64,000 bases of DNA from a phage: sequence record PZ534534.1; one strand, given 5' to 3'. The notes beneath the pieces are model-generated. The model searched no databases. It was not told where the DNA came from and saw only the letters and a list, made by a program, of their open reading frames with translations. Position 1 is the first letter of the stretch, and each line of letters starts with the position of its first letter. A program made the position numbers and the translations under genes. Positions 35,632 to 56,098 of this stretch are shown here, piece by piece.

Positions 35632-35660
35632 TTGACAAGAAAGATGGGGCCAGATATAAT
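35632..35660 (+). promoter_or_regulatory. consensus sigma70 promoter (TTGACA-17-TATAAT) with -10 embedded in GATGGGGCC/GGCCCCATC palindrome
   Basis: Perfect -35 and -10 hexamers with 17-bp spacer read directly; inverted repeat brackets the -10. Confidence 0.65.
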
Positions 35661-35691
35661 GGCCCCATCTAAGAAAAAGGAGACCATAGCA

Positions 35692-44584: not shown

Positions 44585-44668
44585 AAAATTATTGACACGC
44601 TGCAAAATTCAAGTAAACTATACACAAAAGGCGGGAATGTTTCCCGCCAACACAAAGGAAAAAAGATC

Positions 44669-45064
44669 ATGAATAAGAACGTACGCCGCATCATGAACGA
44701 ACTGGCAAACGATGAAAAAATTATTGATATGCATTTGGTCAACATTTGCCACCGTTGTGTAACATACAACAACCGCGCCGCGAAAGCGCGTGAGATGAAC
44801 GCAAAAGGCACCTTAAAGCCCTTTCAGGTGGTTGTAAAATCTATAACTAGCGCAGCAGGCCAGGCGCATGACCACAACAACGAGAGCGCTAATATTGATC
44901 CGTCTTACGTAATGAAACGGATCCGGACTTGCAAGAATAAAGAGCAGGTGTATAACGTCATAGATTGGCTGGACTCCCTGGGCGATGTGGTTTACAATAG
45001 GTTTTCTGCAGCTATTGAGATTCAGTTAGACAGGTTGGACGGGAAAGTACTGAAAACTTACTGA
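44669..45064 (+). CDS. early protein (131 aa)
   Basis: 5' leader hairpin GCGGGAA-TGT-TTCCCGC then ACACAAAGGA RBS. Confidence 0.55.
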   Translation: MNKNVRRIMNELANDEKIIDMHLVNICHRCVTYNNRAAKAREMNAKGTLKPFQVVVKSITSAAGQAHDHNNESANIDPSYVMKRIRTCKNKEQVYNVIDWLDSLGDVVYNRFSAAIEIQLDRLDGKVLKTY

Positions 45065-45065
45065 G

Positions 45066-45111
45066 TTTATTTTTAGATGGCCTTGACTCCAGGGCCATCA
45101 ATAAAGTAAAC
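45066..45111 (+). repeat. conserved about 46-bp regulatory element, copy 1 (UP-like A/T tract + GATGGCC-TTGACTCCA-GGCCATC palindrome + AATAAAGTAAAC)
   Basis: Near-identical copies at 45688 and 49405; palindrome contains TTGACT. Confidence 0.6.
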
Positions 45112-45144
45112 TAACCACAGTTGAGCGGAAAGGGGGGCTTAAAG

Positions 45145-45264
45145 ATGAGTACTACACGCCAGCACACAAAGGTAACTATTATCGTTTGCATCATTGGGTA
45201 CATCCTGGCGCAAATGTTGATGGGTAGCGCCAACGGTGTCGCAAAATTTTTCTTAAACTTTTAA
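45145..45264 (+). CDS. small hydrophobic peptide (39 aa), absent from ORF track
   Basis: ATG after AAAGGGGGG RBS; IIVCIIGYILAQMLMG hydrophobic core; translated by hand. Confidence 0.35.
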   Translation: MSTTRQHTKVTIIVCIIGYILAQMLMGSANGVAKFFLNF

Positions 45265-45292
45265 TTGACAAGCTAACTTAAATCGATATAAT
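45265..45292 (+). promoter_or_regulatory. sigma70-type promoter (TTGACA-16-TATAAT)
   Basis: Read directly; followed by AAACGGGAAAACTTCCC leader hairpin. Confidence 0.55.
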
Positions 45293-45343
45293 AAGCACAT
45301 AAACGGGAAAACTTCCCAGAATACACAAAAGGAGAAAAACACC

Positions 45344-45685
45344 ATGACTACTATGACCGCCGCAGAAAAAGCTATGCAGATCGCTGAACTGAAAAAACAG
45401 ATCGCAGACCTTGAGAATAAGATCGATAACTTTGAAATCGACGAGGACAAGTACGACGAAAACTATGATGAATGGTTAGACGAGATCTACGGCGAAATTA
45501 TGATCGGAAACATTTCTTTTCTTCCGTCGCGTATCCTCAAGGAGTTAGATCCTATCGCTTACCGCTGCGGATTTAGCGACTACATCGACAGCCTGGATAT
45601 TGAGGACGATGAAGAATACCAGGAATTGCAGACAGAGCTGGAAGAAATGAAAGAAGAGCTTTCAGAGCTGGAAGAAAACGAGTAA
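45344..45685 (+). CDS. acidic coiled-coil early protein (113 aa)
   Basis: AAAGGAGAAAAAC RBS; heptad-like Glu/Leu-rich sequence. Confidence 0.55.
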   Translation: MTTMTAAEKAMQIAELKKQIADLENKIDNFEIDEDKYDENYDEWLDEIYGEIMIGNISFLPSRILKELDPIAYRCGFSDYIDSLDIEDDEEYQELQTELEEMKEELSELEENE

Positions 45686-45687
45686 AA

Positions 45688-45733
45688 TTTATTTTTAGAT
45701 GGCCTTGACTCCAGGGCCATCAATAAAGTAAAC
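45688..45733 (+). repeat. conserved about 46-bp regulatory element, copy 2
   Basis: Identical core to copy 1. Confidence 0.6.
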
Positions 45734-45772
45734 TTTACACTGTTAACACTGAACTAATGAGGAGTTAAAACC

Positions 45773-46018
45773 ATGGCAGCACTAATCACAAAATATTATG
45801 CGCCCACCAACACCAAAAGCGCCCGTATCATGGTAAAAGGCTTCGGACGTAAAAAGGTTTACACCTGGGATTATGCCTTAGACACGGAAGACAACTACAC
45901 CAACGCGATGACCGATTTTATTAATGATCTGAACACGCGGATCTTGACAAATTATAAAATTACCGATATTGCCTATATAGGGGAAGGCGGGATCTGTTTT
46001 GTCGGTATCGTCAAATAA
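45773..46018 (+). CDS. early protein (81 aa)
   Basis: TIR GGAGTTAAAACCATGGC identical to that of 50019 gene. Confidence 0.55.
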   Translation: MAALITKYYAPTNTKSARIMVKGFGRKKVYTWDYALDTEDNYTNAMTDFINDLNTRILTNYKITDIAYIGEGGICFVGIVK

Positions 46019-46093
46019 GCTGTTTTTTCGGTGGTCCTGGTAGCAGGGCCATCTATAAAGACAGTTTATCAACACAATGAAAGGAGAAAGTAC

Positions 46094-46447
46094 ATGATCA
46101 GCGGGGCAAGTTTTATTATTGGCGCTATTGCTACGGCTTTAATTGTAAACAAGATCCAATCTAAAAACGAAAAAGAGAGCAACGCGCTCACAGAATACCC
46201 ATTTTGGGTATTCAACGACAATGAAGACTACATTATCAAGTACAAGAATGAGAAGGGCGACCAGGTAACACCGCGACCGATCCCGGCTTACAAAATGCAG
46301 GAAACACTATACCGCCTAAAGGCTGGGGGCGCAAAAATTGTAGACTTTTGGGGATACGATCACACAGATCAGGAAGTTATAAAGCGCCGTATCCGGGCTA
46401 TTCAGGCCAATATTGAAGTTAGCAAGGGGGGAATATATGAAAATTAA
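46094..46447 (+). CDS. membrane-anchored early protein (117 aa)
   Basis: ATG after AAGGAGAAAG; N-terminal TM helix ISGASFIIGAIATALIV (track start 46031 lies in upstream palindrome). Confidence 0.5.
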   Translation: MISGASFIIGAIATALIVNKIQSKNEKESNALTEYPFWVFNDNEDYIIKYKNEKGDQVTPRPIPAYKMQETLYRLKAGGAKIVDFWGYDHTDQEVIKRRIRAIQANIEVSKGGIYEN

Positions 46448-46634
46448 TTTCGAGAAAATTGTAAAGCGCCCTCATGATTCCGAAGAGCTGCCAGAACGCC
46501 GCCAGCGTAACAATAAACTGAATAAGCCAAAAAGGTTTGGGAAGATCTGGCGTAATCATTATGATCGTAAATTGCCCGGCCTACTTTTGGAACGTGAACG
46601 ACAGGCAGAACGATACCGCCATAAAGACAAATAA
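46437..46634 (+). CDS. small basic early protein (65 aa)
   Basis: ATG after AAGGGGGG; Arg/Lys-rich. Confidence 0.45.
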   Translation: MKINFEKIVKRPHDSEELPERRQRNNKLNKPKRFGKIWRNHYDRKLPGLLLERERQAERYRHKDK

Positions 46635-46641
46635 CAACCAA

Positions 46642-46672
46642 CGCCCCGCCATTGTGCGGGGCTTTTTATTTC
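46642..46672 (+). terminator. rho-independent terminator
   Basis: GCCCCGC-cattgt-GCGGGGC hairpin followed by TTTTTATTT. Confidence 0.7.
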
Positions 46673-46792
46673 TATCCTACGAATAGCGCCCCTGGTTGGC
46701 CCTGTAAGCGCCAAAAAGGCCCCCACCTATGCAATCGCCCCCTTTAACCTGAAAACATCGCCCAAGGCCGTTTTATGGCGTTAAAAATATCA

Positions 46793-46820
46793 TTGACATC
46801 GTCAACAGGTTAGCTATACT
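46793..46820 (+). promoter_or_regulatory. sigma70-type promoter (TTGACA-16-TATACT)
   Basis: Read directly. Confidence 0.55.
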
Positions 46821-46852
46821 AACCACATCAAAGAGAGAAAGGAGTAAACGCC

Positions 46853-47113
46853 ATGCGTAAATTAAAAAATTTTGATAAAGTTGATGTTGTCCTGAATAAT
46901 TTTTACTACTGCAACAACAAGGCTATTTGGTGGCGTGATAGTTCCACCGATAAAGTCAAGGCGCGCTTTCTCCAGGGGCACTGGCAAGGCCGCCCAGTGA
47001 TTAAAATCATGGGGCAATTGGTAGCGTTTAAAAATTGCCGCCGTGTTGATGACGTTGAGGAGATTTTAAACATTTTGCGCCACAATAATTTAAAAAATAG
47101 TGTTGACAAGTAA
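46853..47113 (+). CDS. early protein (86 aa)
   Basis: AAAGGAG RBS. Confidence 0.55.
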   Translation: MRKLKNFDKVDVVLNNFYYCNNKAIWWRDSSTDKVKARFLQGHWQGRPVIKIMGQLVAFKNCRRVDDVEEILNILRHNNLKNSVDK

Positions 47114-47129
47114 ATCTTGATAAGTATAC
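47102..47129 (+). promoter_or_regulatory. sigma70-type promoter (TTGACA-16-TATACT) overlapping end of upstream gene
   Basis: Read directly; followed by AAACGGGAAAACTTCCCG leader hairpin. Confidence 0.55.
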
Positions 47130-47187
47130 TTAAACACGTAAACGGGAAAACTTCCCGCCACTAACAAAGAAAACAGGAGAAAATATC

Positions 47188-47811
47188 ATGACCACCGTTA
47201 ACATTACCACAGGTTACAATTTATCTTTCGACGTGCTGACCGACGAACAAAAAGAAAAAGCCATTGAAATGGTACGCGAAAGAGAAGAACACAGCGGGGA
47301 TGACTTTTTTGCAGAAAGTGTAATTGAACACTACAAAGAATATATCTTTCCAGAGTACGGCCTTGAAGATACCGAAGTACATTGGTCCGGCTTTTGGTGC
47401 CAGGGTGACGGCGCTTCAATCAGTGCTGAAAACGTGGATTTAGAAAAATTTTTGCGTAAAGTAAAGGCCCTGACCAAGTTCCGATCAATTCGTCACTTGT
47501 TCGGCACAATGCACGATGGCGAGTTATCAGCCAGTGTTGAACGCGACAAGTACAGCCATTACAGCCATGAAAACACTGTAAGCGGATACATTGATACCAC
47601 CTGGCTAGATCTGACCGCCAAACAAGAAAACAAAGTGGAAGACCTGGAAGAGCTGATCACCGAGACGGTACGGGAGCTATCCCGCAAGGTTTACGTAGAC
47701 CTGGAGGGGGCCTATCTTGAACAATTCACTACCGAAAACCTGATCGGCCTTATCGAGGCCAATGATTGGCGGTTTGATGTGGATGAAGATGGCGAGATGA
47801 CTTTTTCATAA
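47188..47811 (+). CDS. early protein (207 aa)
   Basis: ACAGGAGAAAA RBS; acidic. Confidence 0.6.
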   Translation: MTTVNITTGYNLSFDVLTDEQKEKAIEMVREREEHSGDDFFAESVIEHYKEYIFPEYGLEDTEVHWSGFWCQGDGASISAENVDLEKFLRKVKALTKFRSIRHLFGTMHDGELSASVERDKYSHYSHENTVSGYIDTTWLDLTAKQENKVEDLEELITETVRELSRKVYVDLEGAYLEQFTTENLIGLIEANDWRFDVDEDGEMTFS

Positions 47812-47901
47812 ATAAAGTGTTGCAATAACCTAAAAACCTGCTATATTAAAACTCAAGGGGGCAAGACGTTTGCCCCCACACAAAACAAAGAGGAAAACAT
47901 C

Positions 47902-48282
47902 ATGAAAAACACTACTAAAGCTATTGACACCGTTATGTTTAACCTGGTTACCTTTCGCGAGGATATGAAAGATCTTCCGCGTGAAACAGTGTGCGACCAT
48001 ATCGAAAACTATCGCAAACTAATCAAAGAGTTGCCTTTAAAACGTGATCAGTATGCGGCTAACGCCATGCTTAATGCCATGATCAAAAAGATGATCCAGT
48101 GTGATTTAACTCTAGCCTATGATTATGCGGGTGGTCGTTTTGCAGTATACAATCAGCCCGTGCCCGGTATGAGCACCACCGAAGAATTGCACGCGCTCAA
48201 TCTAAAACAAGACGTGTGGGATAGTATGCCTCGCGTGGTGGTATGGGTAGAAAGCGGAAAGATTTACGGCGATAATTTTTAA
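47902..48282 (+). CDS. early protein (126 aa)
   Basis: Leader hairpin GGGGGCAAGACGTTTGCCCCC + ACACAAAACAAAGAGGAAAAC RBS. Confidence 0.55.
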   Translation: MKNTTKAIDTVMFNLVTFREDMKDLPRETVCDHIENYRKLIKELPLKRDQYAANAMLNAMIKKMIQCDLTLAYDYAGGRFAVYNQPVPGMSTTEELHALNLKQDVWDSMPRVVVWVESGKIYGDNF

Positions 48283-48291
48283 TCAGGTAAC

Positions 48292-48316
48292 AGGCGGCAT
48301 ATTTGCCGCCTTATTG
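48292..48316 (+). terminator. rho-independent terminator
   Basis: GGCGGCA-tat-TGCCGCC hairpin followed by TTATTGTT. Confidence 0.6.
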
Positions 48317-48346
48317 TTAATCAGAACTGTAAAAGAGGTACATAGA

Positions 48347-48718
48347 ATGGAATTTATTATTTTGGCTGTATTGGTTGCCTTGTTTAACGCCTGGATCGCT
48401 GGCAAGATGGGAAGATCCGCCTTTTTATGGTTTATTATATCTATTTTCCTGGGGGTGGTTGCAACTATTGTATTGGTTATCCTTGCAATTGTTGACAAGG
48501 GGAATAATAGAAAGGGTAAAGTATTTTCAGACCTGTACGACGCTCAAACGTTTGTCAACGCCTATTATAGTGATCTTCCAGTCTCCCTACGTTGCAGCCT
48601 TGCACAACAGGTTTTCGATGAAGCTAAAACCAGAGATCACGCCCATGAGATTTGTTTAACTGAGGCGGATCGCTTATTTGAGAGGAATAGAAAATATGTG
48701 GGCCAGCCGTTTAAATAA
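48347..48718 (+). CDS. membrane protein (123 aa, two predicted TM segments)
   Basis: ATG after AAAAGAGG; MEFIILAVLVALFNAWIAG and FLWFIISIFLGVVATIVLVILAIV hydrophobic segments. Confidence 0.5.
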   Translation: MEFIILAVLVALFNAWIAGKMGRSAFLWFIISIFLGVVATIVLVILAIVDKGNNRKGKVFSDLYDAQTFVNAYYSDLPVSLRCSLAQQVFDEAKTRDHAHEICLTEADRLFERNRKYVGQPFK

Positions 48719-48937
48719 TACCACGTTAATTAATCCATTTAGTGAAGATTTGAGGCCAGCCGCCTGGCGGGATGGATTCAATAATGAAAGCTTTATTTTC
48801 AGGCCTGATCTTAAGGAATTTTATAACAATGGATCGAACAACGACAGAGATAATTTTTCTTGTAATGTGCGTGGTGATAATACTCCTGGGGGCCATTGCA
48901 AACCACGTCACTACTAACAGGAGGAAAGGGGGAGACG

Positions 48938-49057
48938 ATGACACCCAAGGATAAGCCCCGCACCGATAAGGCGCGCCGTGTTATGGTATGGCTGGAGATC
49001 ATCGCCCTTGAAATATTGTTAGGCGTAGGGATGTATTTTATCGCTGTACGCACCTGA
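48938..49057 (+). CDS. small membrane peptide (39 aa), absent from ORF track
   Basis: ATG after AGGAGGAAAGGGGGAG RBS; C-terminal TM WLEIIALEILLGVGMYFIAV; followed by terminator. Confidence 0.4.
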   Translation: MTPKDKPRTDKARRVMVWLEIIALEILLGVGMYFIAVRT

Positions 49058-49061
49058 TAAC

Positions 49062-49090
49062 GGCCCCCGATCCCTGGGGGCCTAACTTTT
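49062..49090 (+). terminator. rho-independent terminator
   Basis: GGCCCCC-gatccct-GGGGGCC hairpin followed by TAACTTTTC. Confidence 0.55.
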
Positions 49091-49113
49091 CAAAAAATTT
49101 TTCTTCCGGGGTG

Positions 49114-49141
49114 TTGCAATCCGGTCCAGAATATGGATAAT
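49114..49141 (+). promoter_or_regulatory. sigma70-type promoter with extended -10 (TTGCAA-16-TGGATAAT)
   Basis: Read directly; same AATATGGATAATA block recurs at 49951. Confidence 0.5.
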
Positions 49142-49201
49142 AACAATCAACGGGGAGACACTCCCCCACCACATAGACAAAGTTCCAAAAGGAGAAACAA
49201 A

Positions 49202-49402
49202 ATGAGCAACAATATCCGCGTTATTAACTTCAAAAAAGAAGAAAAAATTGCTGTGCTGGTTGATGGTCAAGAAATATTCAAGGGGTATTATGAAGATCAT
49301 CAGGTGGCGATCAGTATTACCCGCGTGATTGGTTATCATAATTTCTACCCCCAAGGCGCTGAGGCAGCAGTTAAACGAATCAAAGAGATTGTAGGCCTGT
49401 AA
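49202..49402 (+). CDS. small early protein (66 aa)
   Basis: ATG after AAAGGAGAAAC (track start 49133 upstream in same frame). Confidence 0.5.
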   Translation: MSNNIRVINFKKEEKIAVLVDGQEIFKGYYEDHQVAISITRVIGYHNFYPQGAEAAVKRIKEIVGL

Positions 49403-49404
49403 AA

Positions 49405-49450
49405 TTTATTTTTAGATGGTCTTGACTCCAGGACCATCAATAAAGTAAAT
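49405..49450 (+). repeat. conserved about 46-bp regulatory element, copy 3 (compensatory variant GATGGTC...GACCATC)
   Basis: Same element as copies 1 and 2, with paired substitutions that preserve the inverted repeat. Confidence 0.6.
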
Positions 49451-49493
49451 TTAAACCCTGTTAAAATAATCAGTGCAAAAAGGAGCAATGATC

Positions 49494-50478: not shown

Positions 50479-50663
50479 TTTACTGTGTACGGCGCTTATT
50501 CTTTTGGGCGTCCGGTGCATGATAGAATTTTGAAAGTAGCGAACCCTACCGGGAAAAATATCACAGCAGAAAAATTTTTTGAAAATAGTTGACATGACCA
50601 TATAAGACTGTAGTATATAAATCAAAGGGGCAAGCCCCACCAACCACAAAGAGGATAAAAATC

Positions 50664-50843
50664 ATGGCTATTATTGCAAAGACTGAGATCGTAGGCTTGG
50701 ATTCTATTCTCCTCGCATATGAGGAAGCTATAGAAATGTATGTGGTTTCCTATGGTGAGTATATCCGTGAATATAAATCTATTGATCTGGCTTTTGAATG
50801 TTATATTCGCCAGGTTAATAAAGCGTACGATGATTATCGTTAA
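50664..50843 (+). CDS. small early protein (59 aa), absent from ORF track
   Basis: Leader hairpin GGGGCAAGCCCC + ACCACAAAGAGGATAAAAATC RBS + ATG; TTGACA promoter at 50589. Confidence 0.5.
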   Translation: MAIIAKTEIVGLDSILLAYEEAIEMYVVSYGEYIREYKSIDLAFECYIRQVNKAYDDYR

Positions 50844-50933
50844 AATAGTTTGAAAACAAACAACCATCTTACAAAGCATAATACATAAGGCGGTGGAATG
50901 GTCCGCCACCTGGAACAAGAAGAGGAAAACAAG

Positions 50934-53699: not shown

Positions 53700-56098
53700 C
53701 TCTTCTCCTACCATAAACGGCCCTACCTGGCAAGTGGAATAATTGACTAGCTATTAATCCCACACACTGTACAAATATACATGGAAAATAACTATTGCAT
53801 AATTTTTCATTGTGTGGTAGCAAGGCCATTTTTGCCCGTTTTCTCTCCCAAAATTGCACGTAATGCCGCTATTGCATAAATTTTAACCTGATGCATATCT
53901 TCAATATCTTGTCAACAAATAAAAATTCTTATAAGTCATACACTTACACAACATCGAAAGCGTGTCCTATGCGAAAAATCGAGTATAACTATAGCCGCCA
54001 GATTTCAGAATTTACGTACGCTCACCATTCTATAGCTTGCTAAGTATTTATTCCAACCATAGAATAACGGAATAGTCAATACCTGCATAAAATAATTATT
54101 CGTTTAAATTGCATAACATAAATCAGCTCAGGTGTCAACATTTTTCGTAAACAGTCCGAAATTGTCACGGCAAGTTATCATAAGCAGAGAAATCTTTAGT
54201 CGTCTAATGTTTACTGTACGTTACTATACTAACTGGAATCATTAGATGACTAACAGAAAGATAAGAAATAATTAATAATGTAATTGTTTTACCTGTAACA
54301 ATAAGGCAACTATGCAAACGAATGGCATGGCGCGACGGAGTCGCGACATAATATAAAAGCAGTAACCATCACCCCCGTGATAGTTTGTCTGCAAACTATT
54401 AATCAGATCATAGTTGCCTTGTATTTAGTTAATCATGACATAACAAGCAAGGCAACTATAGATCTGCTAATAGTTGCCCTGCTTTTATATTATGTCATAT
54501 ATTATTAACTTGTTAATTGTTAACTTGCTAATTGTTTTCATGCAAACGAATGTCATGGCTTATCATATCTGTGTAAACTGTCAAGGTGTAAACAGTCTAT
54601 GCGGGAACAATCTATACGTGAACAGTGAAACATGAAATAATAACAGTCGTTATTGTGCCATATTGTGTCCGGTGTGTCAGACAAGTTTTTCTCCTCTTTG
54701 TCAAGTGCTGCATGAAAAATTTACAAACTGGTATGGTAGCATTTTTGCGGCCCTGTTTACATTCAGCGATGTATGTATAATCCTTGTTGTGTGGGCGTTT
54801 AGACGTCTAGACGGTTGGAAGTCTGCAGGTCAATATCTAATCTATTGGCTGCTAACTATATCCCACACAAATAGTAAGAAATATGATTGTTATATGCGTA
54901 AACTGTAACTCATGTTATCAATCCCTGTATGTATCGCCAGTGGTGCGCATAATGGGTATTATGTTAAATTGCCCGTAATGATAACTATTCTCACAATGAT
55001 AGGTATTCTCATTCACCCCCACAAGATAGGTTGCAAATGTTGTGCCACTGTGTGAACGGCCTCACCTATTAATTTGCCTCACTGCCTCGATATTTGAGAA
55101 TTATTATAAGAATGAGAAGTATTCCCATTTCGTCCGCCTGGCAGCACTCCAGTCGCTACCGCTCATGACAGGGCAGAACTAGACCCTCTTCAGATATTTC
55201 TGGCTGACTCTTCAGGTCTGTGTGGGAAAAGCCAACCTCTCCGGCGGGGAAGGGGAGGTCAATTAAAAAATTTACGTGGTGTATGAAGCGCTCTTCAGGT
55301 AAGGCATGTGTTATGGGATGAAACCCTCTTCAGGCAATGATATTTGTGGGTGTGATATTTGCTGGAAAGCCAGATATGACGGGACTCCCGGCGGGGCAGG
55401 GGTAGTACAGACAAGGAAAATGTGGGGATGTGGTGGGAGTAAATTGATCAGACAGGTAGAGTATGGAATATGTTACAGGTATGTTAAATAGGGAGGCTGA
55501 ATATCTGTAAGATTTGTGTGTAAAATCAAAGACTTAAGTGGTGTTGTGGTATTTTCTATAAATAATTCAAGTTTAATAGGTAATATTTGTCTCTATCCGC
55601 CTTGTGTGGTAAACAGATTCAGATGAGATTGGTTTACAAGTGTATACATAATATACAAATTAAAGATACAAGAAACCCCCCTCCCCCTTCGGCTACCATT
55701 CACCTTTTCCTCTGACTGGTACTTAAACACTTATTCAGACTCTTCAGGTTATCACCCATATATCATATGGCAGTGACTGGTGTCCTCCGGCCACTCTTTC
55801 GTCACCCGTCCGCTTCGCCATGCTAATGCCATAGCCAATGGTTCGGTTGTTCACCCTGTTCACTCAGGTGTATCTCCATACCCCTTCAAACCGAAGAGAA
55901 CAGAAAACCCGAATTACTCGGTAAAAGAAAAGAGAAGAACTTAATTTTATCAGGATAGGCAAGAATGTCAAGGCATGACTGCTCACTAAACAAGCAAACA
56001 GTCATGTGTGGGAGGTAAGTGATTGTGGTGGTAGGAAATTTAGTTGAAAGATGTGTTATAGGTGCTTCCAGCACTTTAGCCGGGCAGCTAATTGTGTG
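53700..56098. other. 2.4-kb gene-free strand-switch region with nested palindromes and iterated motifs (candidate replication origin / regulatory hub)
   Basis: No convincing ORF on either strand; inverted repeats, direct repeats and six CTCTTCAGG copies read directly. Confidence 0.5.

Follow-up and report, generated by a model that had tools for sequence, protein, structure and literature searches.

Which function should be assigned to a palindromic element that recurs between small genes in 64,000 nucleotides of phage DNA (sequence record PZ534534.1; this whole stretch is called the window below)? The initial annotation, made from the sequence alone, had described three copies of a 46-bp palindrome and had considered an operator or an RNA processing site. 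About 6 kb around the element match 124 phage records with 90-95% identity, nearly all of them Vequintavirus (rV5-like) E. coli myoviruses, several being filed wrongly as "Campylobacter phage", and their annotation is contradictory, as the elements appear as terminators in phage Murica, as promoters in phage Gotham, and without any regulatory feature in most other records examined. We are confident that the elements are functional sense-strand RNA structures of some kind. On balance, and by analogy with phage T7, we favor the view that they are a further case of an already known type, forming a four-member paralogous family of intercistronic T7-type processing signals for the host RNase III in early transcripts.

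A family of two-part hairpins in the sense-strand RNA

The repeated element is real. A 24-nt core, GATGGCCTTGACTCCAGGGCCATC, is found at 45076-45099 and 45698-45721, and with exactly two changes (GATGGTC...GACCATC) also at 49415-49438, and 100 shuffles of the sequence gave 0 matches to it. The extended repeat comprises 48 nt, starting at 45063, 45685 and 49402, with 0-2 mismatches. While the repeat as such had been described correctly, details of its sequence had not, as copy 1 begins with GAGTTT and not AAAATTT, and copy 3 ends with TAAAT and not TAAAC. A supposedly degenerate copy at 46031..46060 turned out to be a full fourth member (copy 4), which the family covariance model matches at 46012-46072 with an E-value of about 1e-12. 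The four members (Table 1) are all located on the + strand within 4.4 kb. By BLAST, about three element places are seen per related genome, and the diverged fourth copy is detected by the covariance model alone. This model found no members beyond the four in the 64-kb window, where the next-best match scored 13.9 bits, and only orthologous sites in 15 related loci and 24 kb of the phi92-like phage KKE7M. In a scan of IMG/VR that included the A/T flanks, the real element occurred only in three rV5-like loci among the stretches listed, the others being chance A/T matches, and a metagenome scan with CAGGGCCATCNATAAAG recovered true elements only on the rV5-like contigs L150, L164 and L187, with no new variants. 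Rfam gave nothing at gathering thresholds across the whole window; its E-value mode returned only sub-threshold matches at chance level.

A palindrome at 35641 had initially been related to this family. It does exist, at 35643-35669 around the -10 hexamer of a promoter with 12/12 consensus matches, but its kinship with the family was rejected, given that nothing after the four elements exceeds the 13.9 bits mentioned above. The shared GATGG...CCATC ends are likewise no sign of kinship, as 2 other matches compare with 1.24 expected once the family is removed. As an observation in its own right, the + strand of 35632-35670 holds a perfect sigma-70 promoter (TTGACA-17-TATAAT) together with an 11-bp G+C-rich hairpin (AGATGGGGCCA/TGGCCCCATCT, -22 kcal/mol) whose loop contains the -10; this hairpin resembles a terminator on the - strand.

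When about 70 nt around each copy are folded, base pairing between the two flanks, T-rich on the 5' and A-rich on the 3' side, results in a two-part hairpin of about 49-57 nt. It consists of a tetraloop, a 10-bp G+C-rich upper stem that includes a U.G pair, an asymmetric (2x3) internal loop, to which the 5' arm contributes 2 nt and the 3' arm 3 nt, and a lower stem of 8-13 bp that is made of A/U with one G.U. On the + strand, the four copies fold with dG values of -21 to -30 kcal/mol and z-scores of -4.3 to -7.0, whereas the - strand fold of copy 1, the sole copy folded in that orientation, is much weaker with -19.2 kcal/mol and a z-score of -2.7. In 4/4 copies, the lower stem starts inside or at the codon that terminates the upstream open reading frame (ORF), and the next start codon follows 30-45 nt downstream. 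The initial description of the elements as promoter-proximal holds only loosely: weak hexamers with 9/12 matches lie inside the repeat, but the elements are intercistronic after stop codons and do not adjoin strong promoters.

The motif and covariation search in the genome and its relatives, which had been proposed as a check, was based on 39 main-type copies and the copy-4 orthologues from the 15 related loci, which collapse to 32 distinct sequences in a gap-free alignment. Standard pairs occupy 92.4% of the pair cells, compared to 36-56% after sliding of the 3' partners. All 32 sequences have a fully (100%) paired upper stem, and seven pairs show changes on both sides, with compensatory changes in both stems, as expected for the selection on pairing that had been suggested. 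Covariation is clearest in the copy-4 orthologues, in which the lower stem GCUG/CAGU is replaced by GUUA/UAAU or AUUG/UAAU with pairing kept, and other single changes turn G-C into G.U or U.G into U-A. That both arms of copy 3 changed together was confirmed, since 49420 C>T and 49433 G>A concern stem partners and convert a C-G pair to U-A. Neither this double variant nor any of the two single intermediates was found in 50,697 phage records, and it therefore represents one private and recent compensatory event. By our estimate, the chance is about 0.6% that the second of two substitutions in some 55 nt hits the partner of the first with the complementary base.

The structure is specific for one strand. 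Across the 20 core pairs, 77 G.U cells were counted versus 6 A.C cells, an asymmetry that argues against a structure at the DNA level or on either strand. In the same direction, the family covariance model scores 71-81 bits on the + strand versus 33-42 bits on the - strand, about 40 bits apart. Divergence from 11 relatives amounts to 5.7% in the elements, 5.9% in coding DNA, 8.4% in other intergenic DNA and 12.4% at third codon positions, showing a moderate selective constraint on the elements.

Comparison with the RNase III sites of T7 and with other explanations

RNase III substrates in E. coli typically comprise about two helical turns; internal loops restrict the enzyme to a single phosphodiester, and the hairpin left at the 3' end gives protection from exonucleases (PMC1540722; PMC6993053). 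Good reactivity needs at least about 11 bp between the cut and the tetraloop (PMC1540722). With 20-23 bp in total, the four elements reach two helical turns and are similar to six T7 sites (18-22 bp). In minimum free energy folds, the T7 sites R0.3, R1 and R1.1 have the same layout as the elements, with a tetraloop, an upper stem of 9-10 bp and a 2x3 loop, and R0.5, R4.7 and R18.5 deviate from it slightly, with a loop of 3-5 nt and internal loops of 0x3, 3x3 and 1x3. Moreover, the T7 cleavage point, CCUU UAU/GAU, aligns with CAUC AAU/AAAG in copies 1-3 and with CAUC UAU/AAAG in copy 4.

Covariance models connect both sets of hairpins in both directions. A model built from the six T7 sites alone was run as an unfiltered search on both strands of the window, and its best four matches are the four elements, at full length and on the + strand, with 28.5, 19.4, 19.1 and 18.3 bits; the fifth match, with 14.3 bits, is partial. 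Conversely, the element model gives four matches only in 32 kb of T7, namely R1, R0.3, R18.5 and R1.1, all of which had been used in the T7 model. The elements also resemble the T7 sites in the 3-5-nt loop, the 9-10-bp G+C-rich upper stem, the asymmetric internal loop with its extra 3' base and the lower stem below it, and in their placement in polycistronic mRNAs, either right behind stop codons or in leaders, if co-transcription across the elements is assumed. Further shared traits are the several paralogous copies with conserved sequence and the weak host promoters that adjoin some T7 sites, the minor E. coli promoters B and C being located next to R0.5 and R1.

The assignment to this class rests on helix length, stem and loop geometry, strand specificity with covariation, intercistronic position and the profile matches. 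Among the possibilities raised initially, an RNA processing site is the best reading of a strand-specific RNA with the geometry of a T7 RNase III site. By analogy with T7 R1.1, R0.3 and R1, we infer cleavage by RNase III, the position of the cut and an effect on mRNA stability as follows. Starting from strong sigma-70 promoters in the early region, host RNA polymerase would read through several small genes. In the + sense transcript, each element would fold into about two helical turns of double-stranded RNA with the 2x3-nt internal loop, and RNase III would nick only the 3' side of this loop, at ...CAUC(A/U)AU/AAAG.... The 3' end of the upstream cistron would then be protected by the stable 10-bp upper hairpin that it retains, and the downstream cistron would be set free and gain a new 5' end. 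With its predicted cut sites, this proposal can be tested directly. To our knowledge, the documented cases of early expression being shaped by RNase III come so far mainly from T7-like phages and lambda. If the elements are RNase III sites, the widely used rV5-like therapeutic and biocontrol E. coli phages would depend on host RNase III to shape their early expression.

There are also differences from the T7 sites, and several points weigh against this assignment. Unlike T7, an Autographiviridae podovirus, the carrier is a large myovirus, and the sequences differ, with GAUGGCC...GGCCAUC AAU AAAG in the elements versus AAGGUC...GGCCUU UAU GAU in T7. The 2x3 internal loop is smaller than the 4x5 loop of the consensus T7-site fold. 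The lower stem, again unlike in T7, is nearly pure A/U, and with its G.U it may be unstable in vivo, especially where ribosomes terminate. The coordinates of the T7 sites R0.3, R0.5, R1, R1.1, R4.7 and R18.5 are those that we take to be given by Dunn and Studier 1983, as the T7 record used here had no site annotation. R1.1 alone could be cross-checked, and its fold shows the GCAA tetraloop and the U:G pair next to a following C:G pair that PMC1540722 describes. The E-values of the T7 model are marginal for copies 1-3 (0.07-0.12), and as these copies are near-identical, the evidence from that model amounts to about two independent matches. In 90 kb of unrelated viral DNA, which served as a control, it produced one match with 21.3 bits and others of at most 15.8 bits; its E-values are roughly right and not generous. 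The reciprocal matches in T7 score just 11-12 bits. In phage Gotham, copy 1 (L002 4382-4437) is without 5 nt of the upper 3' arm, and copy 3 of phage C9 (L113 10732-10797) is without the lower 3' arm, which indicates that individual copies are dispensable; alternatively, both defects may be assembly errors, C9 being an UNVERIFIED record. The identity over 48 nt among copies 1-3 exceeds what the structure requires and could reflect recent duplication, gene conversion or an extra constraint, for example from a promoter. A literature search yielded no report of transcript mapping, cleavage or RNase III for any Vequintavirus, and, unlike for the T7 sites, cleavage of the elements is a prediction.

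As an alternative to cleavage, the hairpin could remain uncut and tune the expression of neighboring cistrons as an intercistronic stabilizer or attenuator without RNase III, either by blocking 3'-5' exonucleases or by making RNA polymerase or ribosomes pause or partly stop. This explanation fits the covarying, stable hairpin that the + strand forms right behind stop codons, and stem-loops of the promoter-early stem-loop (PeSL) cassettes of T4-type phages strongly reduced downstream lacZ expression (PMC2839356). A simple barrier, however, needs no conserved 2x3 internal loop, 10-bp upper stem and long lower stem, and it is to this geometry that the elements owe their top rank with the T7 RNase III model; a U-tract for termination is also missing after the hairpin. 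We therefore think that such an uncut hairpin is possible but rather unlikely. The absence of a U-tract also bears on the Rho-independent terminator annotated in Murica, where 45-nt "terminator" features lie over copies 3 and 4. The hairpin is strong, but AAUAAAG follows the upper stem and UAACCAC, ACUGUUAA, AAACCCUG or CAACACAA follow the whole hairpin, in line with the initial view that these are not canonical terminators. The elements are also missing from a terminator scan that lists canonical terminators nearby, including one at the end of the operon of copies 2 and 4 (46643-46662), and the annotators of phage EdH4 did not label them as terminators. As this operon end shows, the phage uses ordinary terminators where termination is needed, and we regard a terminator function of the elements as very unlikely.

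Another explanation regards the element as a PeSL-like composite promoter of the downstream gene, with the T-tract as UP element, TTGAC(T/A) as -35 and TAAACT/TAAATT as -10, and with a hairpin that merely insulates it from upstream transcription. Copies 1-3 indeed contain TTGACT-18-TAAACT/TAAATT, some relatives, EdH4 among them, have a perfect TTGACA, PhagePromoter predicts a promoter at the element in Gotham, the loop positions AC are invariant while the following two positions vary, the next start codon is about 30-45 nt away, and the copies behave as recombination linkers like PeSLs. On the other hand, 9/12 matches with a suboptimal 18-nt spacer contrast with the 10-12/12 consensus positions matched by the true early promoters nearby. 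The -35 coincides with the top of the upper stem and the loop, the -10 with the 3' arm of the lower stem and the T-tract with its other arm, so that all parts of this promoter except TTGAC are already accounted for as stem arms, and in column pair 8/54 the fifth base of the -10 changes jointly with its pairing partner. Copy 4 keeps the structure through compensatory changes without a recognizable -35 or -10, and the RNA structure is therefore the function common to all copies. A promoter as the main role is thus improbable; a weak promoter may still be present in addition to the RNA function, comparable to the minor promoters B and C beside the T7 sites. A site at the DNA level, either an operator for a dimeric phage protein, as initially considered, or a target of a site-specific recombinase or nuclease, might be suspected from the inverted repeat with its highly conserved arms and from the copies being rearrangement junctions. 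Yet the imperfection of the dyad is strand-specific, G.T being tolerated and A.C not, the conserved covarying unit extends into the A/U flanks, and the strand difference in model score speaks against it as well. Crossovers at 48-bp direct repeats presumably need no dedicated enzyme in a recombination-proficient lytic phage. Dimeric protein binding and other DNA-level functions are accordingly very unlikely, and processing by RNase III remains the explanation that we prefer.

Cassette exchange at the elements and early regions of other phages

The near-identical copies serve as crossover points at which cassettes are lost, gained and moved between phage lineages, and the polymorphisms document such changes of early ORFan genes between phage subfamilies base by base. 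The 622 bp between copy 1 and the start of copy 2 are absent from phage magaca and from the metagenomic contig L062, each of which carries one hybrid element whose upstream flank is that of copy 1 and whose downstream flank is that of copy 2. A module of promoter, gene and copy 2 (45264-45732) is present with 96% identity in KKE7M, a member of the Stephanstirmvirinae and the only non-rV5-like record among 121 that carry the element; homology extends from the -35 to the end of the element. A second segment is common to the window (50652-50845) and KKE7M (L108 10274-10467), with 92.8% identity over 194 bp that cover a 180-bp coding sequence, which suggests that small early genes have been exchanged repeatedly between the two subfamilies. 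Record A12a, one of 17 GenBank records discussed below, starts in the middle of an element, the assembly breaking at the repeat.

This behavior recalls the PeSL cassettes of T4-type phages (Arbiol et al. 2010, PMC2839356; Comeau et al. 2014, PMC4122927). As in PeSLs, the elements are intergenic in an ORFan-rich early region with the upstream stop codon in an A/T-rich tract, the stem-loop overlaps a -35 and is followed by a Shine-Dalgarno sequence and a start codon, and the copies act as crossover points for the deletion, insertion and transfer of cassettes. Unlike PeSLs, they lack a strong consensus sigma-70 promoter, with weak hexamers in their place and none in copy 4, they number only four per genome instead of being dispersed in many copies over hyperplastic regions, and they form a long two-part hairpin and not a short GGGG/CCCC stem, in a different phage family. 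A likeness also exists to morons, the promoter-gene-terminator units of lambdoid phages, in that the promoter, single gene and 3' hairpin shared with KKE7M move as a block. In contrast to morons, the 3' hairpin is not a terminator, and insertion and deletion occur through homologous repeats and not through illegitimate recombination.

Related arrangements are found in other phages. The gene between copies 2 and 4 (45773-46018, + strand) encodes a widely travelled 81-aa ORFan. Its homologues share 44-47% identity in Seuratvirus siphoviruses and 31-42% in Vectrevirus, Klebsiella and Pseudomonas phages. In the Seuratvirus slur01, a two-part hairpin lies on either side of the homologue (47% identical), and these two score 21.1 and 16.0 bits with the element model. 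In a Vectrevirus phage, a two-part hairpin precedes the homologue, and another one, with 29.4 bits, overlaps the stop codon of a neighboring ORF. The T7-like Klebsiella phage RCIP0133 has a hairpin with 27.9 bits directly upstream of its RNA polymerase gene, which is the position of R1 in T7. As a separate observation, the homologue in the Klebsiella phage examined is located a few genes upstream of the RNA polymerase gene. It is tempting to speculate that T7-style RNase III hairpins are a standard punctuation of small early-gene cassettes across unrelated coliphage groups, comprising Vequintavirus and phi92-like myoviruses, Seuratvirus siphoviruses, and T7-like and Vectrevirus podoviruses. 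They would then both process and stabilize the mRNA of single cistrons and provide homologous linkers for the exchange of cassettes between phage families, as an RNA-processing counterpart of the PeSL system of T4. We consider this generalization doubtful at present.

Table 1. Coordinates and properties of the elements and of associated features in the window.
Feature	Position	Strand	Properties
Element copy 1	45064..45112	+	Lower stem 45064-45073/45103-45112; internal loop 45074-45075 and 45100-45102; upper stem 45076-45085/45090-45099; tetraloop 45086-45089; starts in TGA stop (45062-45064) of ORF 44669-45064; predicted RNase III cut 45102/45103; family model 80.9 bits, T7 model 19.4 bits
Element copy 2	45682..45738	+	Lower stem 45682-45686 and 45688-45695 pairing with 45725-45732 and 45734-45738; upper stem 45698-45707/45712-45721; tetraloop 45708-45711; overlaps TAA stop (45683-45685) of ORF 45344-45685; predicted cut 45724/45725; family model 80.6 bits, T7 model 19.1 bits
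Element copy 4 (diverged paralogue)	46015..46069	+	13-bp lower stem 46015-46027/46057-46069; internal loop UC/UAU; upper stem 46030-46039/46044-46053 with two G.U pairs; tetraloop GUAG; contains TAA stop (46016-46018) of ORF 45773-46018; no -35/-10 hexamers; predicted cut 46056/46057; family model 70.9 bits, T7 model 28.5 bits (E 3.6e-4)
Element copy 3	49402..49452	+	11-bp lower stem 49402-49412/49442-49452; upper stem 49415-49424/49429-49438; tetraloop 49425-49428; starts at final base of TAA stop (49400-49402) of ORF 49202-49402; predicted cut 49441/49442; family model 80.8 bits, T7 model 18.3 bits
Weak sigma-70-like hexamers, copy 1	45083..45112	+	TTGACT-18 nt-TAAACT, 9/12 matches
Weak hexamers, copies 2 and 3	45705..45734; 49422..49451 (TAAATT)	+	Same layout as copy 1
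622-bp repeat unit	45066..45687	+	Copy 1 to start of copy 2; 39-aa ORF 45145-45264, strong promoter at 45265, gene 45344-45685
Mobile module	45264..45732	+	Promoter TTGACA-16-TATAAT (45265-45292), gene 45344-45685, element copy 2
T7 gene 1.1 homologue	46437..46634	+	Pfam Phage_1_1 (PF08200), 44.2 bits versus cut-off 21
Canonical intrinsic terminator	46643..46672	+	GCCCCGC...GCGGGGC then TTTTTATTTC; closes operon of copies 2 and 4

The region around the elements

The elements are embedded in a series of small + strand ORFs with no assigned function, interspersed with near-consensus sigma-70 promoters and some canonical terminators, which is presumably the early region of the phage. Searches of the proteins flanking the elements against Pfam and PHROGs gave "unknown function" only, except for the gene 1.1 homologue, which shares its operon with copies 2 and 4 and carries the note "T7 gp1.1-like" in Murica. 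The region corresponds to the small-gene transcription unit of rV5 (10-1-238-164; PMC3606486). In that paper, promoters were sought only by the sigma-70 consensus and terminators by ARNold, and the element is not listed in its promoter and terminator tables (PMC3606486).

Further observations concern the vicinity of the elements and the relatives of this phage. A short G+C hairpin, GGCGGGAATGTTTCCCGCC, is located at 44630-44648 on the + strand between the -10 of a promoter (44592-44619) and the start of gene 44669. It is labeled as a terminator in EdH4; on the + strand it is situated at the extreme 5' end of the transcript, and a T-tail is present on the - strand only. Seventeen GenBank records, MG0656xx, are named "Campylobacter phage" (UNVERIFIED, host C. 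jejuni) but represent Vequintavirus genomes that are 93-95% identical to E. coli phages. Finally, a repeat-rich stretch at 54270-55130 looks non-coding and contains AAGGCAACTAT/ATAGTTGCC four times in both orientations, a perfect 18-nt inverted repeat at 54345-54362/54479-54496, and AATGATAACTATTCTCA three times within 54977-55127; it may be the "non-coding" box of the rV5 map and perhaps an origin or a regulatory region.

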